In this document: positions 4,866-51,834 of the stretch, piece by piece | Position numbering within the stretch: position 1 is the stretch's first letter | How the letters are laid out: each line of letters begins with the position of its first letter | IMG/VR virus record: IMGVR_UViG_3300022700_000241 | Origin: an uncultured virus (IMG/VR IMGVR_UViG_3300022700_000241) | Lineage: Duplodnaviria; Heunggongvirae; Uroviricota; Caudoviricetes | Strand: one strand, 5' to 3' | Length of the DNA stretch: 64,000 nt | The notes under the pieces: generated by a model | The model's input: only the letters and a program-made list of their open reading frames with translations | The model's database searches: none | What the model was told of the DNA's origin: nothing | Program-made: the position numbers and the translations under genes

Positions 4866-5261
4866 ATGCGCTCTTCTGCGCCTCCCGTTCCGACACGCCC
4901 GACCGGCCTTGGCGCCGACCCCTCTCTGTTTGAGTCGGCCTTCGACCGACTCACCGACGTGGTGGACCAGATTGCCCCGGGTGCCCGTGGGGAGATCGTC
5001 CACCAGTATTTGATGCGGAACGGCTATTTCGACGACCCGGAGCGCGCGGCGGCGCTTTTCCAGGGGGTCCCCGAGATCGATTCCTACCTCGACCAGATCA
5101 ACGTCTCGAAGGCCTCGCAAACGACCAACCAGGGCCTTACCGGCAGTCAGGTCGCCGCCGCGACCATTGGGTTTGGTCTCGGGCTTGGCGTCGCCTACCT
5201 TGTATCCTCCGCGACTTCCTCTGCCCCCAGCAATCGGCAGCGACGACTTGAAGGCCGCTAA
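4866..5261 (+). CDS. Small membrane protein (GLG leader, C-terminal TM helix)
   Basis: N-terminal MRSSAPPVPTRPT-GLG; TM segment VAAATIGFGLGLGVAYLV. Confidence 0.75.
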   Translation: MRSSAPPVPTRPTGLGADPSLFESAFDRLTDVVDQIAPGARGEIVHQYLMRNGYFDDPERAAALFQGVPEIDSYLDQINVSKASQTTNQGLTGSQVAAATIGFGLGLGVAYLVSSATSSAPSNRQRRLEGR

Positions 5262-5284
5262 TCTCTCAAAACAGTCCTCCACCC

Positions 5285-8200
5285 GTGAGCGAGCAACATT
5301 CCTCTACACAGACGGAGGCCCGCGAGGGCGGCCCTGCGGGACCCCAGCGCCAGAATCCGGATACCTCCGGCCCCAACCCGCTCGGCGAAGAGCGCGCGAT
5401 GGTCGGGAAAACCGGTCGGGATCTGGCAGATGGTGAGTACCCCGGTCTCATTTTGCCGAGCCCCTACTTCGACGTGCTCGGGGAGCCGCGGCCCTGGTTC
5501 AAGATGCTTGTCTACGGGCGCGAGGGCTCTGGGAAGTCCACGTTTGTGACCGGGCTTTGCAAGGCGTACATGCCCTATGCCCGGCACATGGACGCCAAGA
5601 TTCTTTACTGCTCCAGCGAGGAGGGACCGTCCGACACGAGCGCCGACCGCGTACAGCGACTCAACATCCGGGATGACCGGTTCGTGGTCACCTCATTTTC
5701 GACGCTGGAGGAGCTAAAGGAGGTGGTCGAGGACATCGACGCCCAGTTCGTCGTGCTCGACTCCGCAAGCGCCCTCCGAGACCAGAGCGGCGAGGGCGTT
5801 GAGATCATGAAGTTTTGCGAGCGGCAAGGCCGCGCGGTCGCCGTCATTGCCCACCAGAACTCGAAGGGCGAGGCGGCGAAGGCCCGCGACATGCGACACG
5901 AGTGCGGGATCGAGATCCAGTGCGTGCAGGAGCAGATGCCGCCCGGCAAAGCCCGCGCCTGGGGCCTCGACATCAAGGCCCCCGAGCGCCAGGGCGAGGG
6001 TGGGGAGATCATCGTGCATCTCGCCAAGAAAAAAAAGAACCGGTTCGGCGGGCGCGTGAAGGCGGCTCCGGTCCCGATGAAGGAGGATGAGATCCGAGAA
6101 ACCATCCCGGACCGCGTGATTGACCGCCGGGTCCGGAAACTCAAAGCCCACAACCAGTGGCCTATGACTGGCGGTGAGCCGGACCCTGCCACGTCCATTC
6201 GGGATAACCAGAACGGGTATTCCGGCATGGAAGGCGAGAGCCGACACCCCGGCGAGCCCCAGCGCCCGAACACTGCCGAGGACCGAGGCGGCCCGGAGAC
6301 CGGCCAGCCGGAGCCCGCTCCAGGGGATGCCGGTCCCAGTGGAATGGCCACCCCAGATGGCTCCGCCGTGGACCGAGCCGTCGAGTCGCCTGTAAATGGC
6401 CAGCAAGGCCCCGGCTCCCAGAATGGCCCCAGCGGCGGGCCGACACCGCGCCCCAATCGTTCGACCCCGAAAAATCCGACCAGTCTCATGGGATTCCCGA
6501 GCTTCATCCGAACCAACCCGGCCCAGAAGGTCGACCTCGACGAGTTCGAGTCCTTCACGCTCCGCGAGTTGATCGAGAACAACGGCAACGCGGCCCGCTC
6601 GGTCAGCTACCTCAACAAGTTCATCGGATGGGAGAGGGGGTGCGTCGCGGAGGTTTCCAACAACGAGAGCCCCGATTACCGGAGTGAGGAGGGCGGGCTG
6701 CTCGACGAGACCGAGACGCTGGAGACCGAGGACGGGGAGGTCGTCAACGGAAAGCTGCTCTCGTTTACGTACGAGCGCTTTCCGAAGTCAACCGCACGCC
6801 CGGACGCGGTAGCGGTCACCCGGATGTACCTCAATGACAAGCTGGTCGATACGATCTGCGCGGACACCGCGAAGGAGACCATCGAGATCGTCAAGGAGAA
6901 GTACGGGGACCTGGAGATCAAGGTGCTCTCCCAGGAGCATCTCCAGGACGCCTTTGGCGTCGAGGAATTTCGGCGGCTCGCTTCCGAGATCCCCAAGCGC
7001 CAAGACGAAGACAAAGGCACGGTCCCGTCGAACGTCCGCACTGAGGGGTTTGCCTCCAACGAGGTCTCCCCGCGCGGGCATATCAACACCGACATGGGAC
7101 TGGTCGACAAGCGAGTCATCAACCTCGCGAAGGAGGCGGCGAATGGCGAGTTTACCGGAATGGATGACGATGAGGGAGAAGTTCTTTCCGAGGGGGAGCT
7201 TCCCGCCAGCGCCGACCACGGGGTTGAGCTATTCGGCACCGAGTACATTTTCTACGAGACCGATCAGTTTGAACTGGAGGTCTCCACCGGAGACACGTTC
7301 TTCGTTGGCAGCCGGTCGACACGCGGGGACACCTCCCTCGCCGAGAGCCTCATGGGGTTCAACTTCGGCGCCGAAACGAACCTGTCCGGCGAGGAGCCCG
7401 AGCAGGTCGAGGAGGAGGTCCAAGAGGAAGAGGAGGAAGAGCCCGATATGACGGAGGAGGTCGAGGAGGCCGGACCGCCGGACGTGATGGCGCAGGTCCA
7501 AGACCTCATCGATCAGATTCCCGGCGACACGGAAGCGGGCTTCTTCGGCACTCACGAGGAGGAGGAAACCCCGACGATTGATTCTGCCGCGCTGGAGATC
7601 CTCACCGAGATGGCCGGTTCGGTAGACCGGGAGCAGGCCGGAAGCCGCGAGTTGGTCACGTTGGAGATTGCTGGGCTGACCGCCCTGGCCACCGAGTCGG
7701 ACCTTGTATTGGACGCCCCGACCGCCGACGACCCGTTCTACCAGCTTTCCGTGAAGGACAACGACGAGGGTGTCGATGCGGACATGCTCGTTCTCGCGCT
7801 CCAGGACGCCAATCTCATGAGCAACACCGTCGCGCGGGAGGAGGAGGCCGAGGAAGAACCGGAATCAGTCGGTGAAGCCCTTGGCCAGCGCGCCGAGGAG
7901 GCCGCAGGCATCGATGACGACATCGTGCCGGGCGGCTTCGCGCAAACCTCCCAGGGCATGTTTGTCGGGGGCGACGGGCTCGCGATCTTGCAGGAGGTGA
8001 GCGACGATTCTACCCAGTCCTCCGTGACGTTCGAGCTTGCGGGCGAGACGCTTCGCTTCTCGGTCGAACCCGCCCCGACGAAGTTCATCGGCAGCGAGGA
8101 AAACGGCGCGTTCCTGCTTACCGCTTCCTCGGAGGCGGCCCAGGACCTTTCGGTTCGCGGCTTGCTTATGGCCTTCGATGAGAGCGGCGCGATGCGCAGG

Positions 8201-8365
8201 CAAGCCGTTAGCGAGCAGGTCACCGAGCCCGCCGAGGAGGAAGAGGAGCCCGAACCGGCCCCGGAGCCTTCCACACCCGAACCGGAAGAGGAGACGGAGG
8301 CCTCCGCTACCGAACAAGCCACCGAGCAGATTGGGCAGATGATGAGTCAACTTGAGGACCTGTAA
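5285..8365 (+). CDS. RadA/Sms-like RecA-fold ATPase fused to long acidic C-terminal domains
   Basis: Walker A GREGSGKS (5516), LYCSSEE, Walker B FVVLDS, VIAHQN and the RadA-family signature KNRFG (6035-6049). Two RxNP motifs. Start uncertain (GTG 5285 or ATG 5399). Confidence 0.8.
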   Translation: MSEQHSSTQTEAREGGPAGPQRQNPDTSGPNPLGEERAMVGKTGRDLADGEYPGLILPSPYFDVLGEPRPWFKMLVYGREGSGKSTFVTGLCKAYMPYARHMDAKILYCSSEEGPSDTSADRVQRLNIRDDRFVVTSFSTLEELKEVVEDIDAQFVVLDSASALRDQSGEGVEIMKFCERQGRAVAVIAHQNSKGEAAKARDMRHECGIEIQCVQEQMPPGKARAWGLDIKAPERQGEGGEIIVHLAKKKKNRFGGRVKAAPVPMKEDEIRETIPDRVIDRRVRKLKAHNQWPMTGGEPDPATSIRDNQNGYSGMEGESRHPGEPQRPNTAEDRGGPETGQPEPAPGDAGPSGMATPDGSAVDRAVESPVNGQQGPGSQNGPSGGPTPRPNRSTPKNPTSLMGFPSFIRTNPAQKVDLDEFESFTLRELIENNGNAARSVSYLNKFIGWERGCVAEVSNNESPDYRSEEGGLLDETETLETEDGEVVNGKLLSFTYERFPKSTARPDAVAVTRMYLNDKLVDTICADTAKETIEIVKEKYGDLEIKVLSQEHLQDAFGVEEFRRLASEIPKRQDEDKGTVPSNVRTEGFASNEVSPRGHINTDMGLVDKRVINLAKEAANGEFTGMDDDEGEVLSEGELPASADHGVELFGTEYIFYETDQFELEVSTGDTFFVGSRSTRGDTSLAESLMGFNFGAETNLSGEEPEQVEEEVQEEEEEEPDMTEEVEEAGPPDVMAQVQDLIDQIPGDTEAGFFGTHEEEETPTIDSAALEILTEMAGSVDREQAGSRELVTLEIAGLTALATESDLVLDAPTADDPFYQLSVKDNDEGVDADMLVLALQDANLMSNTVAREEEAEEEPESVGEALGQRAEEAAGIDDDIVPGGFAQTSQGMFVGGDGLAILQEVSDDSTQSSVTFELAGETLRFSVEPAPTKFIGSEENGAFLLTASSEAAQDLSVRGLLMAFDESGAMRRQAVSEQVTEPAEEEEEPEPAPEPSTPEPEEETEASATEQATEQIGQMMSQLEDL

Positions 8366-8414: not shown

Positions 8415-11400
8415 ATGCTTCCCGACGAAGGAATTATCCGCTGGCTCGACCGGCAGGCCCGTAGCGGCCCGCTCCTCAACCGATCTGGGGACCTGCATGA
8501 ACCCCCGGAGTTTTTGGGCGGGAGCGCCGGGATCGAGAGCGTCGAGCCTCGTGAGAACCCCATCGAGGTGGAGGGGCCAGCCCTAAGCGACGAGGAGTAC
8601 CGCGATTCGGTGCGCGATCTGACCGCTGACATGCGGGACCGGGTACTCTTCATCACGCAAGGAATGGGCGAGGAGGAGCTTGCCGTCTTTGCCCGCAAGG
8701 TCAAGCAGCTTCGGAGCAAGGCACTATCGGGCGATCTCTTCGGGGGCTTTATCCGGCAGAACCCGCCCCTCCCCGGTGCTCGGACGACGGTAACCCGCGA
8801 TTACTCCGAGATGCGGGACAACCCAGCGGACAAAGAGATTTCCAGGCGGTCGTTTCGGGAGTTGGTGCAGGGGGTATTCGACCACCTCAACGACGAACTC
8901 CAGGCCCGAACCGAGGCCCTCTCGAAACGGGAGCGCGGATACGTCGTCGAGAAGCTCAAGCACGCACGAAGCGCCCTTTCTACGCCTCGGATGAACCCCA
9001 ACGGCGAAAGCGAAGGCGACGAAGAGGAGAAGCCGTGGTGGGTTGATGAGGGGCCGGAGAACCCCGACCGATTTGCCTCTCGCAACAAGGCCGAACAGCG
9101 CGGTGTGCTTCTCGGCTGCGGGGAGGAGTTTCACGAGCACGAGGAGGACGGAGAGACGTTCTACATGCCCTGTGCCACCCACCGGGAGTGGAAGAAGAAA
9201 ACCGGGCGGGACAACCCCTCGAAAAACTACCACGAGGCCAAGATCCGGAGCACCGGGGGCGACAAATACGAGACGTACCGGCGCGAGGACAATCCGGACG
9301 GGTTTGAGCGCGGAATCCAGGTTCTCTATGGCATTCGCCCCGAAGAGGAAGAGGGTCCGCGCGGAGGCCGCTCCGAGATCGTAAGCGTCTTCTACCCTTC
9401 CGACGAGTGGAACGCGGCCAACGCGCGCCGACACGCGGAAGCGACCTTCGAGAGCTTCGACAGCTTCGGCGAAGCGACCGGCTCTCGGGAGAACCCCGAG
9501 GCCGAATCTCGCACCGTGGAGCTTCGCGTTGAATATGACCTTGAGGCCGGAAACCGGAGCCACAAAGAGGTCATGAACTGGCTCCGGGAGGCGGTCGGTC
9601 GTCTCGGCGGTGAAATCGTCTGGACCGAGAGCTACGGACCGGCAGGCGCACCTGTATCCATCGAGGTTGGAATTGAAGTGTTTGGCGTGCAGGAGGCGGC
9701 GACCCTACAGCACCGATTCGAGGAGCACATGCGCTCGGAGCTTCCCGGCGTCGCCTCCATCCATACCACCGATGTAGGTGTGGCAGAAAATGTGTCGTCC
9801 GACGCCGATACGGTCGTGACCGTTGACGTGCAATACTCGGCGAGCGAACTCCCCCAGGTCGACCCCGGGGACGCCCCGGAGGACGACCGGTTCTACCACG
9901 ACGCAAAGTCGATGGTCAAAGACACGCTCGGGGGCTGGACGATGGGGGCGAGCGAGCTTGCGACTCCTCGGACGATCCGGTTCGGCTTCCCAACGGCCCA
10001 CGAGGCCATTCGAGCGGAAGCGATTCTCAAAGACGCAACCGACCACTACGAAACGGCCCGCGTCTACCTCTCCTCGATCACCGACGAGACGACCGAAGAG
10101 GAGCCGCTTCGCCTTAACCCGCAGACCTCCCACGCCGGAGGGGATTCCCGGCTGGTCCGCGTCACCGAGCAGAGCGGTGACCTCGGGCAGTTTGAGTCCT
10201 CTCCCCGCGTGCGCGGCATGATCGAGCGCACAGCCGATGCGGCGGGCGGGGAAGTCGTCGGCGTGTCCGAGGCCCCGGGAGGGACCGTGCGCGACGTGTA
10301 CGTTGAGTTCGACAGCCCCACCGGGGCGGAGATGTTCACCAACGAATTGAACACGACGTTCTTCACCCGCGGGCTTTCCGACCGCGCTTTGGCGGTCCAG
10401 GAGTCCCCCTCTCGGCTCGCTGCACGCGAGAACCCAACCAGCGGCGACGGTGCGGTGGCCCGGGTTGGCGTAATCGGTAGCGGTGAGGACATGCCCGACA
10501 TTCTCTCGATGGTCGAGGAGGCCGCCGAGGCGGAAGACGGAGAGATCACCGGCGTGCGGCAGTCCGAAAGTGGCGGCGCAAAGGATTACCTTGTTACCGC
10601 GCCGACGACCGATAAAGCGCGCGCAATCATCAACGACCTCAACAACCGGTTCTCTACGCAGGGAATCGGCGAGGCCGCGACCGCGACGCTCCAGCACGAG
10701 GCCCGTGAGAATCCCCCTGCGGAAATGCGTGTGGGGATTAACATGAACCGAATCGACGAAGATGCTCCCGACGTGCTTTCGATGGTCGAGGAAGCCGCCG
10801 AGGAAAACGGAGGCGAGATTTCTGGCGTTCGCCAGTCGGACGACGGGTCCACGAAAGACTACACGGTGACGGCCCCTACGACAGCGAAGGCTCGGTCGAT
10901 CATCGAAGACTTGAGTAGCGAGTTCACGACGCAAGGAATGGCGTCGGCCACGACCGTCACCCTACAGCACGAGGCCCGGGAGAATCCGCCCGGTCATACA
11001 GTTCGCATTGAGGTCCCGCAGTCGCCGAACGTCTATCCAGAGGGCGTGTCTGCGTCGGATTTGCGCGATAAGATCCTGGACACTGCCGGAGGCATGGGCG
11101 GCTCTGTGCGGCGCTCCTCCGAGGAGGTGATTGAGGTCACCTTCGACAACACCGAAAACGCAATCTCCCTCCAGGAGGCGGTCATCGACGACGCAAACGA
11201 CATGGGCGTCTCCAATGTCTTCGTGGTGCGGAAAAACGCGACCGCGCGCCCGAATCCGGCCTCTACGGTTCTGGTTCGCTATCCCAGCGGCCAGTCGGGA
11301 CTCGACGACACGGTACGAAGCGCCGCCGAGGGCGCGGGTGGACACGTCCGCTCCGTCGGTTCGGCGACGGGCTCGAAGTACAGCGGAATGAAAGAGGCGG

Positions 11401-12149
11401 AGATTCGCTTCAACTCCGAGAGCGAATCGTTCAGCGGCGTTGGTCAGATTGAGTCGTCCCTTCGCTCGGAAGGAGTCGGCGAGTTCGAGGCCCGAACGCT
11501 CGCGGACGAGGACGTGCCGCCGGTTCGCCCGAACCCCATTTTCCCCGGTGAGGGCGAAAGTCTCCTGTCCCTCTCCAGTGAAGAGCCGGAAGGCAGCGAC
11601 GAAAGCGCCCTCGGGCTCCAGGACGAGCCGGAGGGGACTGGCGAATCGGCCTTGAGCATGAAATCGCGTGAGGCCCCTGCCGAGGTCGTATCCACGGCGT
11701 ACCGGCTGGGCAAAGAGGAGGGCGAGGAAGACGGCCTGCCCAACTACAACGACGAGGATGAGGCCTTTCGTCACGCCGTACAGACACTCCCCGGAACCGA
11801 CGCGCTGGAGGGGATCGATACGTCGACGCCCGACGGGCTTCTGGCCTTGGAGGAGGCAGCGTCCGCCTGGGTAAACGGGTACGCCGAGTCGACGGGAAGC
11901 AATTGGCCGCGGCTCAACCCACACGCCGGAGAGGAGAGCGAGCCCGACCCGGACACGGATGCCACTGGCATGGCAGCGCCCTCACACGCACCCGCTCGTG
12001 AGAACCCCGAGGGAAAGAAAGGCGGGCGCGAGGCGTTGTCATACCTCGCAATGACCGCCGCACTTCTCGGCGGCGGCGTCTACCTCGCCGATAGCGTCCT
12101 TACCGAACGCGCCGATAGCGCCCCCGCAACTGCAATCGTCAACGAGTAA
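8415..12149 (+). CDS. 1244-aa modular protein with 14 RxNP motifs, ACT/ferredoxin-like repeats and C-terminal TM anchor
   Basis: 14 RxNP motifs. A Cys/His module GCGEEFHEH..YMPCATH. About 7 related beta-alpha-beta-beta-alpha-beta-like units. TM segment LSYLAMTAALLGGGVYLA. Confidence 0.85.
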   Translation: MLPDEGIIRWLDRQARSGPLLNRSGDLHEPPEFLGGSAGIESVEPRENPIEVEGPALSDEEYRDSVRDLTADMRDRVLFITQGMGEEELAVFARKVKQLRSKALSGDLFGGFIRQNPPLPGARTTVTRDYSEMRDNPADKEISRRSFRELVQGVFDHLNDELQARTEALSKRERGYVVEKLKHARSALSTPRMNPNGESEGDEEEKPWWVDEGPENPDRFASRNKAEQRGVLLGCGEEFHEHEEDGETFYMPCATHREWKKKTGRDNPSKNYHEAKIRSTGGDKYETYRREDNPDGFERGIQVLYGIRPEEEEGPRGGRSEIVSVFYPSDEWNAANARRHAEATFESFDSFGEATGSRENPEAESRTVELRVEYDLEAGNRSHKEVMNWLREAVGRLGGEIVWTESYGPAGAPVSIEVGIEVFGVQEAATLQHRFEEHMRSELPGVASIHTTDVGVAENVSSDADTVVTVDVQYSASELPQVDPGDAPEDDRFYHDAKSMVKDTLGGWTMGASELATPRTIRFGFPTAHEAIRAEAILKDATDHYETARVYLSSITDETTEEEPLRLNPQTSHAGGDSRLVRVTEQSGDLGQFESSPRVRGMIERTADAAGGEVVGVSEAPGGTVRDVYVEFDSPTGAEMFTNELNTTFFTRGLSDRALAVQESPSRLAARENPTSGDGAVARVGVIGSGEDMPDILSMVEEAAEAEDGEITGVRQSESGGAKDYLVTAPTTDKARAIINDLNNRFSTQGIGEAATATLQHEARENPPAEMRVGINMNRIDEDAPDVLSMVEEAAEENGGEISGVRQSDDGSTKDYTVTAPTTAKARSIIEDLSSEFTTQGMASATTVTLQHEARENPPGHTVRIEVPQSPNVYPEGVSASDLRDKILDTAGGMGGSVRRSSEEVIEVTFDNTENAISLQEAVIDDANDMGVSNVFVVRKNATARPNPASTVLVRYPSGQSGLDDTVRSAAEGAGGHVRSVGSATGSKYSGMKEAEIRFNSESESFSGVGQIESSLRSEGVGEFEARTLADEDVPPVRPNPIFPGEGESLLSLSSEEPEGSDESALGLQDEPEGTGESALSMKSREAPAEVVSTAYRLGKEEGEEDGLPNYNDEDEAFRHAVQTLPGTDALEGIDTSTPDGLLALEEAASAWVNGYAESTGSNWPRLNPHAGEESEPDPDTDATGMAAPSHAPARENPEGKKGGREALSYLAMTAALLGGGVYLADSVLTERADSAPATAIVNE
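10425..10988 (+). repeat. Tandem duplication of a ~92-aa RxNP-bounded module
   Basis: Units 10425-10703 and 10704-10976 share PD(I/V)LSMVEEAAE..GEI(T/S)GVRQS..G..KDY.VTAPTT.KAR.II.DL...F.TQG...TLQHEARENPP. Confidence 0.9.
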
Positions 12150-12158
12150 CTCAACCCC

Positions 12159-13082
12159 ATGACCCCGACCGCCCCGCTTTCCAAAACTGGTACGTCCAAC
12201 GGGCTCGGCCAATCCCGACAGTCCGGGCTTGGCTTCACCGACAACATCGAGGCCGCCTTCGAGCAGTCAACCAACGGCAAGGTGCGGGCGAAGATTGTCC
12301 CGAACCGAATCATCGACGTGCCCTTCTACGCGGAGGTGACCGTGCCGACGTACGGCGGAACCAACATCGACAACAAGCAGACTTTCCTGGAGGCGGACCT
12401 CACGAGGACGGCCCTGGAGATGCTTATGGAGGACACCGGCCTCAAAGAGATCGAGGTGCTCGGCCCCGCGCAGACGAATGGGCCACCGACGGACGGAGGG
12501 AACGGCGAGCAGAAACAGGCGGGATTCTTCGAGCAGAACTGGCCGTGGGTTCTCGGTGGAGGTGCCGTGGTTTTGGTCGGCGCGCAGCTACTTGCGCGTA
12601 GCGGTCGACGGCAGATGGCCCAAAAGGCAGAGCAGGTGCAGGGCAGCCGCGCCAACCCAGACGGACCGGTCGATGAGGCTGTTGAGACGCTCCAGGAAGG
12701 CATCGAGGAAGCGTCCGCCGAGACGGCAGAGGCGGTCGAAACTGGTGAGGAGACCATCGAGGACCTGGAGGAGGAGACCGAAGAGGCCCTCCCGGAGTCG
12801 CTTGAGGATCGGGGCAATCCCTCCGACTCGAACAATTCGGCGGACTACTGGATTGCCCGAGCGACGGTAGACCAAGATGAGATGGATCGGGGGAACGTCC
12901 ACCGCACGTCGATGGCCGCCAACATCGCGTCCCTCGATATGGAGGATCAGCGTCGCATCGCGTCGAACCTTGCGGTCGCCCCGGGCGGTAAGGTAACCGT
13001 ATGGAAGAACACCGCCGACGGACTCAAGCAGAAGAAGACCTTCACCTGGAACCCTGACAGCGGGTTCTCTCCGACAAGCTAA
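12159..13082 (+). CDS. Membrane protein (GLG leader, central TM helix, two RxNP motifs)
   Basis: NGLGQSRQSGLGF leader; QAGFF..WPWVLGGGAVVLVGAQLL TM segment; RANP and RGNP motifs. Confidence 0.8.
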   Translation: MTPTAPLSKTGTSNGLGQSRQSGLGFTDNIEAAFEQSTNGKVRAKIVPNRIIDVPFYAEVTVPTYGGTNIDNKQTFLEADLTRTALEMLMEDTGLKEIEVLGPAQTNGPPTDGGNGEQKQAGFFEQNWPWVLGGGAVVLVGAQLLARSGRRQMAQKAEQVQGSRANPDGPVDEAVETLQEGIEEASAETAEAVETGEETIEDLEEETEEALPESLEDRGNPSDSNNSADYWIARATVDQDEMDRGNVHRTSMAANIASLDMEDQRRIASNLAVAPGGKVTVWKNTADGLKQKKTFTWNPDSGFSPTS

Positions 13083-13112
13083 CGATCCTATCACTTTCCG
13101 CTCCCGGCGCCT

Positions 13113-13814
13113 ATGCCTGTTCAATCTCCACTCCTCAAGTCGACAAAGGGGCTCTCCCAGTCCAATGGGGTCAAGTACGGCGACGTTGACGGAAGTGGCA
13201 CCGTGACCGCCACTGACGCGCTTATGGCCCAGAAGGCGTTTCTTGGTCAAATCGAACTCACCGACCGACAGAAGCGGGCCGCCGACGTAAACGGTGACGG
13301 CATGGTCAATGCCACCGACGCACTTCTCATCGAGAAGTACGCGCTCGGGGAGATCGACAAATTTCCCGTCGAGAAAGAGGAACGGGAACCCCAGAAAATC
13401 CGGAACCTACGCGCCGACATCGCCACGCTCCAGACAAACATCGCCAAGCTGCGCCCCTTCGACGAGCTTCCCCCGTGGAGGCGAAAGCGTCTCGTGAAGG
13501 CGACCAACCTCGCCGACGAAGCCAATATCCTCGTAGAGGATGAGGATCAGTTCTCCGAGGCGCAGATGAAGTACGACGAGGCGCTTCGGATCTTCAAGGA
13601 CGACGCGCCCCCGGAATCCGGCACTGGCAACGGAGGGTCCTCCACCGGAGGCTCTTCAAACGGTGACCCCTCAAACGAGGGCGGATCTGGAGGGGACGGC
13701 TCCGGCGGAGCCAGCGGAGGCTCCGACCAGATGATTTCCGGCGTCGACGACACAACGCTCGTCCTCGGCGCGGGCGTGGCCGCGACCGGCCTTATCGCTC
13801 TTGCTGCCTCTTAA
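13113..13814 (+). CDS. Dockerin type I domain protein with C-terminal TM anchor
   Basis: Duplicated Ca-binding loops YGDVDGSGTVTATDALM and AADVNGDGMVNATDALLI..YALG.I..FP; Gly/Ser linker; C-terminal TM segment. Confidence 0.85.
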   Translation: MPVQSPLLKSTKGLSQSNGVKYGDVDGSGTVTATDALMAQKAFLGQIELTDRQKRAADVNGDGMVNATDALLIEKYALGEIDKFPVEKEEREPQKIRNLRADIATLQTNIAKLRPFDELPPWRRKRLVKATNLADEANILVEDEDQFSEAQMKYDEALRIFKDDAPPESGTGNGGSSTGGSSNGDPSNEGGSGGDGSGGASGGSDQMISGVDDTTLVLGAGVAATGLIALAAS

Positions 13815-13826
13815 CACCTCTGCCCT

Positions 13827-14525
13827 ATGCGACGATCTACGCACTTGATGGAGGGGTCCGGCGGCCAGGGTGGACTTGCCGCGGCGGGAATCGTGTATGA
13901 GCTTTCGATCCCCCATACGGTCGGGTCCTCCAGCCGAGCAAAAGTCCTCGACACGCTCTCCAGCATGGATCGGGTCGAGGTGCTCCAGAAGCAGTATGGA
14001 TCCGGCTCGCCCCCTTCGATCTTGATCCGGTCCGACCAAAGCAAGGACCGGGGCCTCATGCAAACCATTGCCCGGGCCGGACGACTCGATGTCGACGGAT
14101 TCTTGCTCCAGCCTGCGAGCTACGACCCGCCCCCGAACGGCGACGTTCCGCCCCCTCCGGAACCGAAGCCTCCCTACTACAAGATTGCGCCCGCCCAGCG
14201 GGTCACGATTGGAGAGCTTGAGGAGTCGATTGCACGAGAGTTCTCGCCCAACGTGATCGAAAAGGTCGGGGGCGGCGCCGTGTACGTGCGAAGCTCCGTG
14301 GTTTCATCGGTGAGAGAGATCAACGTGCTCCCCTTCGTTCAAAGCGCCACCGGAACGCGAAACCTCCCCACCGAGATGAACGGGGGAGGCGGAAACGGCG
14401 GTGGCGGCAACGGTGGAAGCGGCGGCAGAAGTGGCCGGATCTTTGCGGGCGTATCGAACACGACCTTGGCCGTGGGCGGTGGGGTGGCCGCCGCGGGGAT
14501 TCTTGCGCTGGTTGCCTCCAGCTAA
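13827..14525 (+). CDS. Membrane-anchored protein (MRRSTHLM leader)
   Basis: Shared leader; Gly-rich linker; C-terminal IFAGVSNTTLAVGGGVAAAGILALV. Confidence 0.8.
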   Translation: MRRSTHLMEGSGGQGGLAAAGIVYELSIPHTVGSSSRAKVLDTLSSMDRVEVLQKQYGSGSPPSILIRSDQSKDRGLMQTIARAGRLDVDGFLLQPASYDPPPNGDVPPPPEPKPPYYKIAPAQRVTIGELEESIAREFSPNVIEKVGGGAVYVRSSVVSSVREINVLPFVQSATGTRNLPTEMNGGGGNGGGGNGGSGGRSGRIFAGVSNTTLAVGGGVAAAGILALVASS

Positions 14526-14566
14526 CCTCCAGTCGCTTTCTTCTTGCAGCTTTTCAACACAGTCCT

Positions 14567-15142
14567 ATGCGACGTTCTACCCATCTCATGAAGTCCGGCC
14601 CCTCTGGGCTCGGTCAGAGCACCCGAACCGTCAAGGTTGGCACGTTCGGATCTCGGTCAATCCCCTCCGGAGAGAAGCGAGACTACACCTTTACCGTCGA
14701 GGAGGGCGGGTCGATTGAACCCGGGCCGGAGTTCAACCCGAACCACGACTCGATCAATGGCCGAACGGCCAGCGGTCGGATCTATGGCCCCGGCGGGTAC
14801 GACGGCTACCGCGTCACCGGTCAAATCATCGATGCGAGTCTCCCCAGTGAACTGACGTTCCAGGAGGCCGACGTGGAAACGGGTTCTGGCGGCGGAAATG
14901 GCTCCGGCGGCGGTGGCGGCTCGCAGAACGGATCCCAAAATGGATCCCAGAACGGGTCCGGCGGCAACGGCTCGGGAGGGGGCGGAGGAGACTTCACCTC
15001 CGGCGGTGGCGAAACCGTAGGCGCGGGCCAGACGCAGCAGGCCGGAATGTCCACGACGACCCTTCTGGTTGGCGGGGGCATCCTCGCCGCTGCGGGCGTG
15101 GCGGCCTTTGCGATGGGCGGGTCCAACAACCAGTCCAATTGA
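14567..15142 (+). CDS. Membrane-anchored beta-rich protein (MRRSTHLM leader, GSQN repeats)
   Basis: Leader plus GLGQ; beta-rich domain DYTFTVEEGGSI..TASGRIYGPGGYDGYRVTGQI; (GSQN)3 linker; QQAGM followed by a TM segment. Confidence 0.8.
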   Translation: MRRSTHLMKSGPSGLGQSTRTVKVGTFGSRSIPSGEKRDYTFTVEEGGSIEPGPEFNPNHDSINGRTASGRIYGPGGYDGYRVTGQIIDASLPSELTFQEADVETGSGGGNGSGGGGGSQNGSQNGSQNGSGGNGSGGGGGDFTSGGGETVGAGQTQQAGMSTTTLLVGGGILAAAGVAAFAMGGSNNQSN

Positions 15143-15155
15143 CCGCACCGAACCG

Positions 15156-15359
15156 ATGCGACAGCGACCCCGCCTTACCGGCCCTCGCTCTCGTGGGCTT
15201 TCCGACACGACCAGCACGGAGGGATCCCAGCCGGACCAGTCCGTTGGACCGGTTCCTTCCGGCGATGTGGGGAGTGAGGTCCTTTTTGGGATTGGCGTGG
15301 CCCTGACCGGTCTCGCGGCCCTTTCTCTTCTGGGCAACGGTCGCTCCGGTCACCAGTAA
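15156..15359 (+). CDS. Small membrane protein
   Basis: MRQRPRLTGPRSR-GLS leader; TM segment VLFGIGVALTGLAALSLL. Start moved to ATG 15156. Confidence 0.7.
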   Translation: MRQRPRLTGPRSRGLSDTTSTEGSQPDQSVGPVPSGDVGSEVLFGIGVALTGLAALSLLGNGRSGHQ

Positions 15360-15396
15360 GAGCGCCCCCACAAGAAACCGAACGTACCGACACACC

Positions 15397-15630
15397 ATGC
15401 AGCGATCTACGCACTTGATGAAGGCGAGGGGGCTCGGTCGAACCCGCGCGCCCAGAGCCCGACCCGGCTTCTTGAACTCCGGACTTGCGGAGAATGGCGA
15501 CTCGAACCAGTCGGGCCAGCAGACCTCGGCGCTCACAATGACGATTTTCGTTGCGGGCGGCATCGCCTTTGCATGGTGGCTAAGCCAGGAGCCACAGGAG
15601 GTCGTTCCGTCGGCTCCCGGCCCGGCGTAG
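15397..15630 (+). CDS. Small membrane protein (MQRSTHLM leader)
   Basis: Leader nearly identical at DNA level to the one at 13827; TM segment MTIFVAGGIAFAWWL. Confidence 0.75.
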   Translation: MQRSTHLMKARGLGRTRAPRARPGFLNSGLAENGDSNQSGQQTSALTMTIFVAGGIAFAWWLSQEPQEVVPSAPGPA

Positions 15631-15660
15631 CACGCTCTTTCACCGACACTGACGGTCACA

Positions 15661-15909
15661 ATGCGACACTCTCGCACCTCGAACGCTCGCGGCCTTAGCA
15701 AGCCGGTCGTCTACGGCAGCGCCCGATACCGCCGCAATGCCGGGCTTGCCCAATCAAACGGATCCTCCGGGTCCGGCGAACAGATCATTAGCGGCGTCTC
15801 GAACACGACCCTCTACATCGGCGGGGGTGCCGTGGTCGGAGGGCTCCTGCTTTGGACGCTTTTCTCCGGCGGCTCCAGCGGCAAGGCGGATCTTCCAACC
15901 CGCGCGTAA
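15661..15909 (+). CDS. Small membrane protein
   Basis: Basic leader with GLS and GLAQSNG; C-terminal IISGVSNTTLYIGGGAVVGGLLLWTLF. Confidence 0.75.
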   Translation: MRHSRTSNARGLSKPVVYGSARYRRNAGLAQSNGSSGSGEQIISGVSNTTLYIGGGAVVGGLLLWTLFSGGSSGKADLPTRA

Positions 15910-15915
15910 CCCACT

Positions 15916-16131: not shown

Positions 16132-16133
16132 TC

Positions 16134-16925
16134 ATGCCAGGAACTATGGGAAACTCTGCGCCGGGCTCCAGAACCAACCCCGCAGAGAAAACGACCCCTT
16201 CGTCCAACGGCTCCGATAACGGGTCCGTCTCGTCTTCGTCCCCCACTGTACCGAAAGCCGGAATGGGACAGCCGGAAGAAGAGAAGGAAAGCGGACCGGC
16301 GCCCAGCGTCATCCGTCGGGCGCAGCTACCGGCCCCCTCCGAGATCGACGACGAGGAGGTTTACATGGCCACCTTCCGCAGCGGGAATACCGTTCCACTG
16401 ACGGGTCGAGAACTAAAAGAGACGCTCACGACGGACCGCCCGCCCGGAATGTCCCTCGGTCAAAACGGCACCGATACCTCGACAAACGGATCCGGGGACG
16501 GTGGCTCCGGGGACGAGCGTAAATGGTGGCACGACGTGCTTTTGGGCATCGGTCGGATCGGCGGCATCTTTCTTCGCGACCGCCTTGGCGACGGCCAGGA
16601 GCTTAGCCAGGAGGAGCGAGAGGCGCTCCGCGAGATTGCCCAGCGGCGGCGCGAGGAGCGCCTTCGCCGACAACGGCGCAACCGGTGGCTTATGATCGGA
16701 GGCGTCGTCGTGATCGGAGGGCTCGGGCTCTGGCTCGCGACACGCTCGTCTTCGGCCCCGGCCCCGCCCCCACCGCCGCCCCCTGAACCGGATGAACCCG
16801 AACCGCAGGAGCCGGAAGAGGTGGAGATCACCGATCCCGAACGGGAGAATGCCGAGCAGGAGGGCTCCGCGGAAAGTGAGGGCGACGGACCTCAAGCACA
16901 AGGCACCACCACGGACAACGAGTAA
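16134..16925 (+). CDS. Membrane protein with Arg-rich juxtamembrane segment and poly-Pro tail
   Basis: RTNP, GMGQ and SLGQNG motifs; RRREERLRRQRRNR followed by TM segment WLMIGGVVVIGGLGLWL. Confidence 0.75.
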   Translation: MPGTMGNSAPGSRTNPAEKTTPSSNGSDNGSVSSSSPTVPKAGMGQPEEEKESGPAPSVIRRAQLPAPSEIDDEEVYMATFRSGNTVPLTGRELKETLTTDRPPGMSLGQNGTDTSTNGSGDGGSGDERKWWHDVLLGIGRIGGIFLRDRLGDGQELSQEEREALREIAQRRREERLRRQRRNRWLMIGGVVVIGGLGLWLATRSSSAPAPPPPPPPEPDEPEPQEPEEVEITDPERENAEQEGSAESEGDGPQAQGTTTDNE

Positions 16926-16933
16926 CCGATCCG

Positions 16934-17590: not shown

Positions 17591-17642
17591 CGCCACGATT
17601 AGCACTCCTCACGAGTCTTTCCACTTACAACCGGCTCTCGCT

Positions 17643-18101: not shown

Positions 18102-18154
18102 CCCATCTCTCCTCCCTTCCCGCTCTCAAAGACGAGTAAGCCCGCCCCGTAGCT

Positions 18155-18700: not shown

Positions 18701-18718
18701 CTCCAGCCTCACCATCCC

Positions 18719-19690: not shown

Positions 19691-19720
19691 GGCGGCAGAC
19701 CATTTCGTCGAGAGTACCGT

Positions 19721-38609: not shown

Positions 38610-39242
38610 ATGGAGTTTGAGTCATATCAAGATGCTCTCCTGTACCTCAAAGACCACTACGGGGGCCTCCACGAGGTCGCCAAGGCGTGTGGCCTGGATG
38701 TCGGAGGGCGCTGGCTCCACCAGACGCTCAAGGATCAGCACCGAAAGGCTTCCGATGGCGTACGGAACGCAGTTATCGAGCACGCGGAGGGTCTCCGCGA
38801 GAAGGAGTTGAAGGGCCGGGGCGACGTTGACGGGGACATGATCCGCAAGATCAAGGCCCTCCACGAAGAGTATGGAAGCTGGCAGCGGGCGGGCCGCCGT
38901 ATAGGGGCGCCCCCGAGTGCGCTTCGCCTTGCGGTAAAAGAGGGGGTGGGACTTCCGGAGGAAACCCGCCAGAAAATTATCGATGCCTCCCGCCGAAGCG
39001 ACCTGGAGGAGCTAATTGGCTTCCTCTGTGTCGGGATCGGGCTCCAGATGGTCGATGCCCTTCGCGACACGAGCCTTTCGGCGGACCAGAAGAAAATCCT
39101 TGACAAAGCGGAGGGACAACTCCAAGATTACAACCGCCTGTTGCAGACCGGCAACATGCAGGAGCTTCGGGACAAGATTCGCGACGGCATCGACACGCTC
39201 AACGAACCGATCCAGAACGGCCATGAGGCCTCCAAGTCGTAG
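38610..39242 (+). CDS. Putative DNA-binding protein with two HTH-like units
   Basis: HYGGLHEVAKACGLD..WL and EYGSWQRAGRRIGAPPSALRL resemble Cro/Xre-like HTH motifs. Confidence 0.55.
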   Translation: MEFESYQDALLYLKDHYGGLHEVAKACGLDVGGRWLHQTLKDQHRKASDGVRNAVIEHAEGLREKELKGRGDVDGDMIRKIKALHEEYGSWQRAGRRIGAPPSALRLAVKEGVGLPEETRQKIIDASRRSDLEELIGFLCVGIGLQMVDALRDTSLSADQKKILDKAEGQLQDYNRLLQTGNMQELRDKIRDGIDTLNEPIQNGHEASKS

Positions 39243-39717
39243 AAATCTCCAGCGCCCCTCCTCCGGGTCTCTCTCGACCGGGGCGACGCGCCCCATTGTC
39301 GGTCGGAGAATGGGCCTCGGCGTGCCAGAGGATCCGAACATCGCGACCTTTGCCCCGACGGGCACGACGGATCTCACGTCGTCTCGGTCACTGGCGGCTC
39401 AGATCGAGAACATGGGGCTCCCTGCCGTCGTGGCCGCCTCTCCCGTCAAGGCCGTTCGGCCCAACGGGTCGGAAGCGTGGATGGTGCGTTTGGCCTACAC
39501 CTCCGAAGAGGTCCCTCACCCGGTTGCCGCGCTTCCAAACGCGAGGCCCGTAAGCTGGGAACTCAAAACGACCTCGAACAAAGAGCAAGCCCGGGCGTGG
39601 ATCAAACTGGGCATTTTCTCTGCTCTCATGTGGACGGGAATCGCCGTGGCCGGAGGGACTGCGATCTGGTGGGCGGTCTCGTCCGCAACTGGCGACCGGT
39701 CACCCTCTTCCGAATAA
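39223..39717 (+). CDS. Membrane protein (basic leader, GLG)
   Basis: MRPPSRRNLQR..RRM-GLG; C-terminal TM segment. Start at ATG 39223. Confidence 0.65.
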   Translation: MRPPSRRNLQRPSSGSLSTGATRPIVGRRMGLGVPEDPNIATFAPTGTTDLTSSRSLAAQIENMGLPAVVAASPVKAVRPNGSEAWMVRLAYTSEEVPHPVAALPNARPVSWELKTTSNKEQARAWIKLGIFSALMWTGIAVAGGTAIWWAVSSATGDRSPSSE

Positions 39718-42117: not shown

Positions 42118-42702
42118 ATGCCTCTCGTCAAAGAGATCAGCGAAGAAGAGCTTGAGAGCATCGCCGAGCTTTACGATGTTCGCCAGTTCTACTCGGGCAC
42201 CACGACGCTTCGGTTCTTTGCGCCGAACCCGTCGGGGACCGTGCTGGACAACAACTACAACAGCAACCCCCTGCCCGGGCAGACGCCCTACGACCTGCTG
42301 AGCCTCGGGCTCGAACTTGGCCCGACGCCGCTGGTCGAGGAGACGGGCCAGAACATCGATCCGCTGGCGATTGCCAACACGTTCCTCTCCGGGATCGTCG
42401 AACTCCAGGTCGACGGCGGGAAGGAGCAGGCCTTCGTGCATCCGATCAGCGATTACGTCGACACCGAAAACTTCGACTGGGACGAGACCTCCAACACCCT
42501 GTCCATCGGGTCCAAGCAGCTTGCGAAGATCATGGACCCCTTCCTGGTGCGGCGCAATCGCCAGTTCGACCTCACGCTCCGGTGGCAGGACACCTCGGCG
42601 CTGCCGAGTCAGTCCGACTGGAGCGGGGCGAGCAACCAGCACGCCTCGGACCTCAAGATTGCCGCGACCATGCAGGTCAACGACTACGGCGATAATTTCT
42701 AA
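42118..42702 (+). CDS. Candidate single jelly-roll major capsid protein 1
   Basis: 194 aa, beta-strand-rich, no TM segment, strongly C/G-ending codons. Paralogous to the next gene (YD.R.F..L..F.PNP..NYN.NPLPG..Y..N.DP.AI..QFD.T). The CDS is secure; the capsid role is inferred. Confidence 0.55.
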   Translation: MPLVKEISEEELESIAELYDVRQFYSGTTTLRFFAPNPSGTVLDNNYNSNPLPGQTPYDLLSLGLELGPTPLVEETGQNIDPLAIANTFLSGIVELQVDGGKEQAFVHPISDYVDTENFDWDETSNTLSIGSKQLAKIMDPFLVRRNRQFDLTLRWQDTSALPSQSDWSGASNQHASDLKIAATMQVNDYGDNF

Positions 42703-42819: not shown

Positions 42820-43449
42820 ATGTCCCGCCTTAAAAAGTCTCCCGCGCTGGAAGGCGTAAACCTCGACGCGGAACTGGACCTGTACTACGACCGGCGCCCG
42901 TTCGAGGACGCCAACGCGGACGATGAGCTTACGCTCTTCCCGCCGAACCCGCAGAACTCGGATCTGGTGAGCAACTACAACCAGAACCCGCTGCCGGGCA
43001 CCGAGGAGTACCGCATCATCGCCGCCCGAGTGCGCCCGACGTTCATGCTGCTCCGCGAGGACAGCGGCAACAACGTCGACCCCGAGGCCATCGGCGCGCA
43101 ACTCAAAGACGCGGTGCTCACGATCCGCGACCGCGGCGGCCAGAACCGTGTGGTCCAGAACCGGCTGCCCAGCCACTTCGACACGAACGACTTCGTGGTC
43201 AAACGCTTCCGGGACAACCGGGGCACCGGCGACGAGTCGGACACGTCGTACCTCTTCTACGGAGGATTCGAGATTGCCTCGCTGCCGGAGTGGTTCACTC
43301 TGAGCGCCACGCAGCAGTTCGACTTCACGGTCAAGTTCCCCGACTCCTCGGTCTTCCCGACGCAGAGCGAGATCGAGTCGAGTGGCCAGGGGATCCAGAG
43401 CCACCCGTTCGGCCTCGAAGCCGTCTTCCAGTACGCGACGCTCAACTAA
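42820..43449 (+). CDS. Candidate single jelly-roll major capsid protein 2
   Basis: 209-aa paralog of 42118-42702; followed by a structured region and a strong terminator. Confidence 0.55.
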   Translation: MSRLKKSPALEGVNLDAELDLYYDRRPFEDANADDELTLFPPNPQNSDLVSNYNQNPLPGTEEYRIIAARVRPTFMLLREDSGNNVDPEAIGAQLKDAVLTIRDRGGQNRVVQNRLPSHFDTNDFVVKRFRDNRGTGDESDTSYLFYGGFEIASLPEWFTLSATQQFDFTVKFPDSSVFPTQSEIESSGQGIQSHPFGLEAVFQYATLN

Positions 43450-46569: not shown

Positions 46570-46995
46570 ATGCACCGACGAGTCAACCCGCCCGCCCACG
46601 AGTGGCAGACGAATGGCCAGTCGAATGGACAATTCTATGGCCTCGGCCAGACCCTCCGCGAGCGCATTCGCCAGGGCAATCTCCCGGACTCAATCCAGGA
46701 GATTATCGGTCCCATCGAGGAGAAGGACATTGACCTCGTGATCGACATTCTGGAAACGCTCAAGGGTGAGGGCACCCGCTTCGAGGACCTCACGCCCGCC
46801 GAGAAGCGCGCCTTCGCGCAGGCCTACCTGGAGCGGACCGGCCAGCGCCGGTCTGGTCTTGGGGGCGGGGTATTCGTGCTCGGTGCGCTCGCCGTCGTTG
46901 GCGGGATGGTCTGGTGGCAAAGCACGCGGGGGCGAGAGATGGAGCCTCCACCGCGCCCGCCCGGTCGTAAAGGCGAGGACGACGAAGACGAATAG
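46570..46995 (+). CDS. Membrane protein (RVNP plus GLGQ leader)
   Basis: MHRRVNP..FYGLGQ; TM segment VFVLGALAVVGGMVWW. Confidence 0.75.
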   Translation: MHRRVNPPAHEWQTNGQSNGQFYGLGQTLRERIRQGNLPDSIQEIIGPIEEKDIDLVIDILETLKGEGTRFEDLTPAEKRAFAQAYLERTGQRRSGLGGGVFVLGALAVVGGMVWWQSTRGREMEPPPRPPGRKGEDDEDE

Positions 46996-47043: not shown

Positions 47044-47334
47044 ATGGCACAAGGATGTGGATGCGGCTGCAACGGCCAGAAGAAAACCGCAATGACCCGC
47101 ACCGCCCGAGGGCTTGGGCGCGCTCGACCCGGCCTTTCTCGGGGCGGGCTCTCCCAGTTTGAACGGCAGGATCCGTGGCTCACGGTCGGCCCGCGCGGCG
47201 TGCAGGTCGCCGGTCGCAACTTCACATGGCAAACAGTTGGCGGGTTTGTGATGCAGGGAGCGCTCCTCTACCTTCTCTGGACAACGATCCGCCACGGTCC
47301 AGAGGCGGTCCAGCCAAGAGGCCAGTCGGCCTAA
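47044..47334 (+). CDS. Small membrane protein with GCGCGC N-terminus
   Basis: MAQGCGCGCNG; GLG/GLS three times; C-terminal hydrophobic helix. Confidence 0.65.
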   Translation: MAQGCGCGCNGQKKTAMTRTARGLGRARPGLSRGGLSQFERQDPWLTVGPRGVQVAGRNFTWQTVGGFVMQGALLYLLWTTIRHGPEAVQPRGQSA

Positions 47335-50629: not shown

Positions 50630-51508
50630 ATGAATCGTTACCCGAAAGCTCGCCCCAACCCGAACGTCCTGGCACGCGGACGACCGCCCCAAGACGGCAT
50701 GGCCGGGCCGACGGCCCCAACGTCCGGACGTGCTCGGACGAATCCATCCCCCCAGGCTGGCCTTTCCGGCCAAACCGGGCTCGGTGCTCCAATCAAGCAA
50801 ACGGGGTCGATGACCCTCAAGGTGACCGGCGCGTCGTTCCCGTCGCCGGGGCGCGTTCTGGTGGACATGGAGGCAGACACCTCGCCGACGATCACGACTG
50901 CGTGCTGGTCGTTCTACGCGGCCCTGGTTGGGTATCCCGGTCAGGTGCTTATCGACACGTACTTAGAGCCGATTACCTACGGGACCTGCTACCACCGGTG
51001 GCAGTTTTCCGGAGAGATGCCCCAGGGGGTCCAGGAGGCAGAAGTGTGGATCTGGTGGGCCGATGACATTCGGGGGTGGTTCGAGGCGCCTCCGGCGTTT
51101 GAGCAAGGCGTCGGCACGGAGGACCTTACGAGCCCGCCGCCTGCCTTTCGCTCCGACCGGTTCCCGCTCCTCAATACGCAAGAGGGCCGTGACCGGGGCA
51201 TCTACGAGGAGAAGACCGAACCGACGATTGATGCAGTCGGAGACTTCGGGGCGGAGTTCGGAAGCGCCCTCAAGGACACGCTCATTACCGCTGCCCTCAT
51301 CGCCGGTGGTGGCGCACTTCTCTGGTACGGCGCCCCGGTGATTACTGCCGCTTCCGAGCAGGCCGCCGAATCGATCCGGGAGGACTCCGATGAGGCGGGC
51401 GGTGACGATGAACAAGAAGCTCTCCCCGAGCCCGACGACTCCCGCGAGAACCCCGGCGAAAAGAAACCGCCCTCCGCAGAGAAGATTCTATCGGAGAACA
51501 GAAGCTAA
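50630..51508 (+). CDS. Membrane-anchored protein carrying both RxNP (3 copies) and GLG leader motifs
   Basis: RPNP, RTNP, GLSGQTGLGA, a beta domain, TM segment LITAALIAGGGALLWY, then RENP. Confidence 0.75.
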   Translation: MNRYPKARPNPNVLARGRPPQDGMAGPTAPTSGRARTNPSPQAGLSGQTGLGAPIKQTGSMTLKVTGASFPSPGRVLVDMEADTSPTITTACWSFYAALVGYPGQVLIDTYLEPITYGTCYHRWQFSGEMPQGVQEAEVWIWWADDIRGWFEAPPAFEQGVGTEDLTSPPPAFRSDRFPLLNTQEGRDRGIYEEKTEPTIDAVGDFGAEFGSALKDTLITAALIAGGGALLWYGAPVITAASEQAAESIREDSDEAGGDDEQEALPEPDDSRENPGEKKPPSAEKILSENRS

Positions 51509-51576
51509 CGGGCTCGCTCACGCGCGCTCCGCACGCCTCACAGACGACTGCCTCAAACAGACCCCAACGTACCGAC

Positions 51577-51834
51577 ATGCCACGCATTCGCTCAGAGAAG
51601 CCACAAGGCGCTCTCACGACGGAGAGCGAGGAGGAACCTAACAACCTCGTTCCCGCAAACGCAGGCCTAAATCGCGGCGTCCCCGCCCGCCGAAACGCCG
51701 GAGGTCTTGCACAAGAGGGGTCCGGTGGGATGATCTCGCAGATCCGGTCCCACTACCAGTCCAACAGCCGCATCTACAACCTTGCGGGCGCGGCCATTGG
51801 TGGGTTCGTTCTCGGGATGCTCGTGAAAGGATAA
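51577..51834 (+). CDS. Small membrane protein
   Basis: RRNAGGLAQ; C-terminal TM segment. Confidence 0.7.
   Translation: MPRIRSEKPQGALTTESEEEPNNLVPANAGLNRGVPARRNAGGLAQEGSGGMISQIRSHYQSNSRIYNLAGAAIGGFVLGMLVKG

Follow-up and report, generated by a model that had tools for sequence, protein, structure and literature searches.

How does a virus that carries a membrane mark the proteins that belong in it? To our knowledge, how membrane-containing phages select the proteins of the virion membrane is not understood. The question is raised here by a 64,000-nucleotide stretch of DNA from an uncultured virus (IMG/VR record IMGVR_UViG_3300022700_000241), referred to below as the window. At least 14 non-homologous proteins encoded between positions 4866 and 51834 have one architecture: a basic N-terminal leader, the tripeptide G-L/M-G/S/A, a passenger domain, a Gly-rich linker, and a single membrane helix. 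The leader family is real and is conserved in a little-known group of viruses. We tentatively favor the reading that the leader is a virion-sorting tag, cut at GL[GSA] by a co-encoded, membrane-anchored transglutaminase-like enzyme (g3538); sorting, cleavage, and enzyme are all predictions, and our confidence in them as a whole is a little short of even.

The tripeptide is concentrated at N-termini to a degree that composition does not account for. An earlier note on this DNA had listed 14 genes and their tripeptides, all of which were found at the given starts, and had named Gly-rich composition as an explanation that would undo the pattern. Counts were made over 43 plus-strand open reading frames (ORFs) picked by eye. 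In the first 60 residues, G[LM][GSA] occurs at 27 sites in 19 of the 43 proteins, compared with 7.08 ± 2.53 sites in 6.41 ± 2.19 proteins when these residues were shuffled protein by protein, and none of 5,000 composition-keeping shuffles reached the observed values. Past residue 60, the motif is present at 2.4 per 1,000 amino acids (aa), versus 2.3 expected from composition. The excess holds for strict GL[GSA] (22 versus 5.9 ± 2.3; 0 of 5,000 shuffles) and after removal of the possible paralogues g13827, g15397, and g51577 (23 versus 6.1 ± 2.4; 0 of 5,000 shuffles). Position is also nonrandom, as the motif starts at residues 11 to 16 in eight proteins, versus 0.74 ± 0.85 expected (0 of 5,000). 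When all tripeptides with at least five occurrences in the N-terminal 60 residues were ranked, GLG, GLA, and GLS took places 3 to 5, behind SNG and VEV. The motif is a feature of the virion module: in the minus-strand control, it was found in the first 60 residues of 1 of 16 proteins. Third codon positions differ among the motif copies, which indicates that selection acts at the protein level, and this codon variation rules out a DNA-level or regulatory motif.

Codon use within the motif has a peculiarity of its own: all 22 Leu codons of N-terminal GL[GSA] are CTT or CTC, two codons that together account for 70% of all Leu codons, and CTG, about 20% of Leu codons overall, is absent from them. 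SNG, the most enriched tripeptide of plus-strand N-termini (6 versus 0.9 expected), often trails the motif (GLSQSNG and GLAQSNG).

These counts bear directly on the possibility that the leaders have no common function and that the pattern arises from Gly-rich composition, from choosing the motif after the fact, or from the duplication of a few N-termini. As a motif, G[LM][GSA] is short and degenerate, three genes sharing the MRRSTHLM-type start described below may carry recombinant copies of one leader, and two carriers, g15661 and g51577, are weakly similar. However, the shuffles never matched the counts, even with paralogues thinned, the unbiased tripeptide scan recovered GLG, GLA, and GLS, and the motif is kept in orthologues. 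A lack of common function is therefore largely refuted and very improbable.

All 14 carriers are encoded on the plus strand. Their leaders carry a net charge of +10.6 per 100 aa, compared with −5.2 for the rest of the same proteins and −6.2 for the whole plus-strand proteome, in agreement with the earlier description of basic leaders in an acidic proteome. Membrane helices were called from Kyte-Doolittle hydropathy (19-residue window; threshold, 1.5). The description of the carriers as membrane proteins stood for 12 of the 14, each with one hydrophobic segment, but not for g47044 and g50630, which fell below the threshold. In most carriers, the helix is at or near the C-terminus, and in g12159 it is in midprotein (residues 128 to 146 of 307).

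The first carrier, g4866 (4866..5261; 131 aa), has GLG at residues 14 to 16 and a helix at 96 to 114. It is followed by g12159 (12159..13082; 307 aa), with GLG at both 15 to 17 and 23 to 25 and a second motif, RxNP, at 164 and 218, and by g13113 (13113..13814; 233 aa), with GLS at 13 to 15 and a C-terminal helix at 214 to 232. The passenger of g13113 is a dockerin type I domain (residues 22 to 76; Pfam, E = 8e-17) directly after the leader; no cohesin partner was identified for it. In g13827 (13827..14525; 232 aa), the start MRRSTHLM precedes GLA at 16 to 18 and a C-terminal helix at 212 to 230. The same start opens g14567 (14567..15142; 191 aa), in which a spacer, GLG at 14 to 16, a beta-sandwich (19 to 101), a Gly-rich linker, and a C-terminal helix (166 to 184) follow in order. 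Three very small proteins come next: g15156 (15156..15359; 67 aa), with GLS at 14 to 16 and a helix at 42 to 60; g15397 (15397..15630; 77 aa), with MQRSTHLM, GLG at 12 to 14, a basic stretch, GLA at 29 to 31, and a helix at 44 to 62; and g15661 (15661..15909; 82 aa), with GLS at 11 to 13, a basic stretch, GLA at 28 to 30, and a helix at 50 to 68. g16134 (16134..16925; 263 aa) has RxNP at 13, GMG at 43 to 45, and a helix at 185 to 203.

Farther along the plus strand, g39223 (39223..39717; 164 aa) has a basic leader, GLG at 31 to 33, and a helix at 125 to 143, and g46570 (46570..46995; 141 aa) has RxNP at 4, GLG at 24 to 26, and a helix at 96 to 114. g47044 (47044..47334; 96 aa) is a basic protein with GLG, GLS, and GLS at 23, 30, and 35; it contains 3 acidic and 12 basic residues, and a Cys-Gly repeat (C-G-C-G-C) lies ahead of the three tandem GL[GS] copies. 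In g50630 (50630..51508; 292 aa), RxNP is present at 8, 36, and 272, GMA at 23, GLS at 44, and GLG at 50, and a conserved domain begins at Met61. The last carrier, g51577 (51577..51834; 85 aa), has GLA at 43 to 45 and a C-terminal helix at 66 to 84. A C-terminal helix is a common topology in this module, being found in many other proteins, including g3538 and a 1244-aa protein (8415-12149, plus strand) with a single C-terminal membrane helix.

Both ends of these proteins are built from common modules. The non-homologous g13827, g14567, and g15397 open with MRRSTHLM or MQRSTHLM, and their mutual differences are synonymous, which argues that the tag is translated and selected as a peptide. At the other end, several unrelated small proteins (13113-15909 and 18155-19690) have a cassette of a Gly/Ser/Asn-rich linker, G-[VMF]-S-x-T-T-L-x-x-G-G-G, and a helix.

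A tag at one end and an anchor at the other resemble bipartite sorting of surface proteins, and one passenger is a dockerin, a domain that is usually extracellular. The leader might then be an unconventional export signal that takes the passenger across the host membrane to the periplasm and hence to the virion lumen. Several findings oppose this. In the Kyte-Doolittle scan, the first 40 residues were free of hydrophobic segments in all 14 carriers, and without a hydrophobic core neither Sec nor Tat would serve. The NCBIfam models of known sorting domains (PEP-CTERM, PGF-CTERM, GlyGly-CTERM, and LPXTG) were unmatched in 18 small proteins at E values of up to 1, although short signals are easily missed by such models. 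The short, uncharged C-terminal tails would instead suit proteins that enter the membrane by their C-terminal helix and keep the N-terminus in the cytoplasm. Export thus appears quite improbable. NCBIfam searches with 12 larger window proteins gave nothing over the cutoffs.

Other known leader types were also rejected. Sec and Tat signal peptides are excluded by the missing hydrophobic core, and a type IV prepilin (class III) leader is excluded because polar or charged residues follow the motif and the helix lies well downstream. A double-glycine, bacteriocin-type leader does not fit either, as the middle residue of the motif is Leu or Met and neither a C39 peptidase nor an ABC transporter was found among the 43 plus-strand and 19 further window proteins.

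Orthologues place the motif at the boundary between leader and domain. In the g14567 family (alignment A4), M-[KRQ]-[RK]-S-x-H-L-x opens 11 of the 11 sequences with an N-terminus, followed by a spacer of Gly/Ser/Pro, roughly 4 to 20 residues long, GL[GA] at the junction (9 of 11), Gln (9 of 11), and, directly downstream, the conserved domain. In the g12159 family (A1), every one of the 12 sequences with an N-terminus has the GLG adjoining the domain, followed by Phe or Leu; a GL[GSA] farther upstream is present in 7 of the 12. In the g50630 family (A5), the junction GLG is present in six of six leader-bearing sequences and is followed by Ala or Glu, and an upstream GL[GS] is present in five of the six.

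An AlphaFold2 model of g14567, built from a 13-sequence alignment, has predicted local distance difference test (pLDDT) values of <50 at residues 1 to 3 and 6 to 14 and block means of ≥95 over residues 21 to 100. The first strand spans residues 19 to 25, and the motif (14 to 16) is two residues ahead; the remainder outside the sandwich is disordered. The pLDDT profile and strand positions put the motif just ahead of the fold. VIA-align returned only generic beta-sandwich neighbors for this model (best Z of 5.5; root mean square deviation of 3.3 over 77 residues). The claim that the folded part begins right after the motif was thereby supported in the three families tested (A1, A4, and A5) as well as in the g14567 model.

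What kind of virus carries these proteins? [quoted passage not shown] SSIP-1 is tailless and icosahedral, with a lipid membrane beneath the capsid. Two reports describe it as a membrane-containing phage of the PRD1-adenovirus type of architecture with two capsid protein types (PMC6356626; PMC4958249). The 43 plus-strand proteins were compared with the 57 SSIP-1 proteins by blastp. Similarity was found between g3538 and gp34 (E = 5e-15), g5285 and the ATPase gp40 (E = 2e-18), the last ∼120 residues of g26304 and the C-terminus of the giant structural protein gp43 (E = 6e-8), g42118 and g42820 and the capsid proteins gp45/gp46 (E down to 7e-13), g43714 and gp47 (E = 6e-12), and g44638 and gp48 (E = 4.5e-5). 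The homologues are collinear with the window genes, the matched SSIP-1 proteins are all annotated as structural, and in SSIP-1, as in the window, proteins with one membrane helix at the C-terminus are numerous. The two elements nevertheless differ: protein identity is only 23 to 32%, and the SSIP-1 genome is 43.8 kb, with the window element being about three times larger (contigs that encode proteins identical to those of the window reach 135,993 bases).

The capsid pair consists of two paralogous jelly-roll major capsid protein genes on the plus strand, g42118 (42118-42702) and g42820 (42820-43449), with products of ∼200 aa that match each other at E = 9e-19 and belong to a family of 50 representative clusters. 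Both proteins are acidic (29 acidic and 11 basic residues in g42118, and 32 and 19 in g42820). The AlphaFold2 model of g42820 is all-beta (pLDDT, 89.8), and its best viral structural match has a TM score of 0.75 (E = 2.9e-10). A Foldseek search of the PDB with this model gave nothing at an E value of 0.001 or better and only generic jelly-rolls, and the sole tblastn match of g42820 in phage records was SSIP-1 gp45. Pfam and PHROGs gave no hit among window proteins to a capsid, portal, or terminase protein of tailed phages or to a conjugation protein. From the homology with SSIP-1 and the many small membrane proteins, we infer that the virion contains a lipid membrane. The acidic proteome and the absence of purine-rich sequence ahead of start codons would fit a salt-loving, Salinibacter- or Salisaeta-like host. 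A DNA search of positions 12000 to 19900 against phage records gave no match, and searches of viral and genome contigs returned no relatives of g3538, g5285, g14567, g42820, the g12159 family (A1), or the capsid alignment (A6). A metagenome scan yielded just two short loci, which do not enter the analysis.

The leader feature seems to predate the window genome, because it is enriched, though weakly, in the corresponding module of SSIP-1. The first 60 residues of the 24 proteins of the SSIP-1 virion module (gp34 to gp57) contain 7 G[LM][GSA] motifs, versus 2.64 ± 1.57 expected, and 7 or more were obtained in 70 of 5,000 shuffles; the other 33 SSIP-1 ORFs contain 2, versus 2.93 expected. Among the carriers in SSIP-1 are two structural proteins, gp37 and gp53, as well as ORFs 35, 36, 39, and 52, several of them with a C-terminal helix. 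In the window proteins, however, the motif is far commoner, and the MRRSTHLM-type tag was not seen in SSIP-1 proteins.

The module also encodes a candidate enzyme. The product of g3538 (3538-4809, plus strand) matches Pfam Transglut_core (PF01841) at E = 3e-10 and 40.8 bits (cutoff, 23). Its Cys, His, and Asp motifs are intact, and, going by the motifs of the family, we take these residues to be the catalytic triad. Like the carriers, it has a C-terminal membrane helix (residues 390 to 408 of 423), and its SSIP-1 homologue, gp34, is a structural (virion) protein. A PDB sequence search with g3538 gave no match. The true start of the gene is probably the ATG at residue 32, 31 codons past the TTG used here, as a public record of the protein begins at that Met.

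We suggest the following sequence of events. The leader would mark membrane-anchored proteins for the virus membrane patch, with the bulk of each carrier facing the cytoplasm and later the capsid. GL[GSA] would be the junction at which the tag is removed at maturation, with Leu or Met in the P2 position and a small residue in P1, and g3538, membrane anchored like its putative substrates, would do the cutting. Papain-fold proteases typically prefer hydrophobic residues at P2 and small ones at P1. It is this preference, together with the co-encoded, anchored papain-fold enzyme and its virion homologue gp34, that leads us to favor cleavage. Since g3538 is anchored by its C-terminus like its putative substrates, its catalytic domain and the leaders would be on the same side of the membrane, and the order of tag, variable spacer, G-L-small residue, and domain is what a removable address peptide would look like. 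The earlier proposal of removable leaders on virion-membrane proteins is partly supported by the membrane-virus affiliation, the presence of anchored carriers in the virion module, conservation of the leader as a unit, and the co-encoded Cys enzyme, while removal itself is predicted.

A number of points weigh against sorting with cleavage by g3538. First, the motif is repeated in five leaders (g12159, g15397, g15661, g47044, and g50630), which would suit a repeated binding motif equally. Second, 2 of the 11 g14567 orthologues have no GL[GSA] at the junction (GLR and GGG instead). Third, 4 of 10 g50630 orthologues (P0081, P0082, P0083, and P0085) are called from the invariant Met (residue 61) just past the leader, which could reflect a difference in gene calling or a second start that gives a genuine leaderless form, and if the calls are right, the leader would be dispensable in those orthologues. 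Fourth, transglutaminase-like domains are common in tailed phages, and some phage transglutaminase-like proteins are cell wall peptidases, so that g3538 may be such a peptidase for entry or lysis, unrelated to the leaders. Fifth, the ORF set and the start codons were our own choice. Finally, only the initiator Met is reported to be removed from virion proteins of HCIV-1, an archaeal relative (PMC4958249).

Several of these points suit the main rival, which fits the data almost as well. The leader could be retained, with the basic tag and GL[GSA] forming a short docking motif through which these proteins, by their cytoplasmic ends, would be held to a common partner (the acidic inner face of the jelly-roll capsid, a scaffold, or an assembly factor); it would then tie the membrane to the capsid and select virion proteins. 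The opposite charges of leaders and capsid proteins and the repeated motif copies would be as expected, the conserved N-terminal octapeptide suggests a function of the tag itself, and the loss of Met only in HCIV-1 is what retention would give. Docking, however, has no need for the motif to lie exactly at the junction of leader and domain in three unrelated families, and we regard it as possible though on the doubtful side.

A further alternative gives g3538 a different activity. If it were a true transglutaminase, the motif might mark a Gln for coupling to a Lys of a capsid or membrane protein. Gln directly follows 8 of the 27 sites, a 7-fold enrichment, and follows the junction in most g14567 orthologues, and g3538 does have a transglutaminase-core domain. 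Most sites, by contrast, have no following Gln, including the invariant junctions of A1 and A5, and the transglutaminase-core proteins of prokaryotes are mostly regarded as hydrolases, which makes cross-linking improbable.

RxNP may be a second signal alongside the leader. Between positions 5285 and 51508, the 43 plus-strand proteins contain 43 copies of it, versus 2.5 expected. The 1244-aa protein contains 14 copies, six of them spaced ∼90 to 105 residues apart, and the two giant proteins described below contain eight and nine; there are none in 16 minus-strand proteins. By frame, 56 are found in the three plus frames versus 9 in the minus frames, with varying codons, and this specificity for coding frames argues against a DNA-level or regulatory motif here too. 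Most orthologues of g12159 and g50630 retain RxNP, and in A1, R218 and N220 are invariant and P221 is nearly so. The presence of both motifs in the genes at 12159, 16134, 46570, and 50630, as first noted, was confirmed, and g41114 adds one more; in leaders with both, RxNP is upstream of GL[GSA]. SSIP-1 has 5 copies, versus 1.4 expected, 4 of which are in gp41 to gp43. Among dipeptides, NP has the strongest enrichment in plus-strand N-termini (first 60 residues; 20 versus 8.8).

SSIP-1 is the closest relative; in function, the nearest analogues are found in other viruses. In T4 internal proteins and phiKZ-like head proteins, a short N-terminal leader ending in a three-residue consensus is removed by the prohead protease, and the sites end in Glu. 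The window resembles these phages in that many unrelated virion proteins have a short leader ending in a three-residue consensus. In contrast, they have an HK97-fold capsid and a prohead protease, whereas the window has a jelly-roll capsid, membrane-bound carriers, and predicted cleavage. Propeptides of the tailed-phage prohead-protease type were rejected, as no HK97-fold capsid, portal, terminase, or prohead protease was found in the window (Pfam and PHROGs) and the capsid proteins are jelly-rolls.

Adenoviruses, poxviruses, and African swine fever virus (ASFV) have maturation cysteine proteases that cut short Gly-containing sites near the N-termini of virion proteins. In vaccinia virus, the I7 protease trims the membrane protein A17 close to its N-terminus, which releases the D13 scaffold. 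These viruses are like the window virus in combining an internal or precursor membrane with jelly-roll shell proteins, but their proteases belong to the adenain/Ulp1-like clan and their sites differ from G-L-[GSA]. No adenain/Ulp1-like protease was found by Pfam and PHROG searches of this window of the ∼136-kb element, and a system of the adenovirus or nucleocytoplasmic large DNA virus type was rejected; the link that the earlier note had drawn to the proteases of these viruses is reduced to an analogy, given that none of those families is in the window and the site consensus differs. Signal peptidase I cuts after small residues at −3 and −1, a rule that G-L-G, G-L-S, and G-L-A obey, but the window leaders lack the hydrophobic core by which the site would be offered to the peptidase. 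The leader system of the window is a member of neither the T4/phiKZ nor the adenovirus/poxvirus/ASFV systems, from which it differs in capsid fold, protease family, and site consensus. A literature search of limited scope met no description of such a leader.

The window has a G+C content of 63%. The carriers are embedded in a plus-strand gene array that extends to ∼52.3 kb, beyond which genes are on the minus strand. The plus strand encodes a DnaB helicase (96-1175; Pfam). It also encodes the 1026-aa g5285 (5285-8365), with a RecA-like ATPase domain at its start (Pfam), and two giant "polyvalent" proteins. One (19788-26210; 2140 aa) has an ART-PolyVal domain, and the other, g26304 (26304-38162; 3952 aa), has ART-PolyVal, parts of an SNF2 helicase, and an intein (all Pfam); the intein consists of Hint plus LAGLIDADG at around residues 1880 to 2150. 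Minus-strand Pfam matches (ParB, primase zinc finger, and resolvase) correspond to a replication and partition module.

It is possible, though we would not call it probable, that SSIP-1-like phages have a dedicated sorting-and-maturation system, in which a common tag is carried by at least a dozen anchored proteins, a papain-fold enzyme of the virion trims at G-L-[GSA], and RxNP acts as a second signal. We know of no prokaryotic jelly-roll virus with a maturation protease. If it exists, such a system would parallel, in prokaryotes, the maturation by proteases seen in adenoviruses, poxviruses, and ASFV and would extend this process from the eukaryotic viruses of the lineage to the bacterial ones. 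A further gain would be a sequence signature for recognizing virion membrane proteins in uncultured relatives. A conserved leader on more than 12 membrane proteins, near a candidate enzyme, offers a direct handle on how membrane-containing phages choose the proteins of their membranes, and SSIP-1 is in culture.

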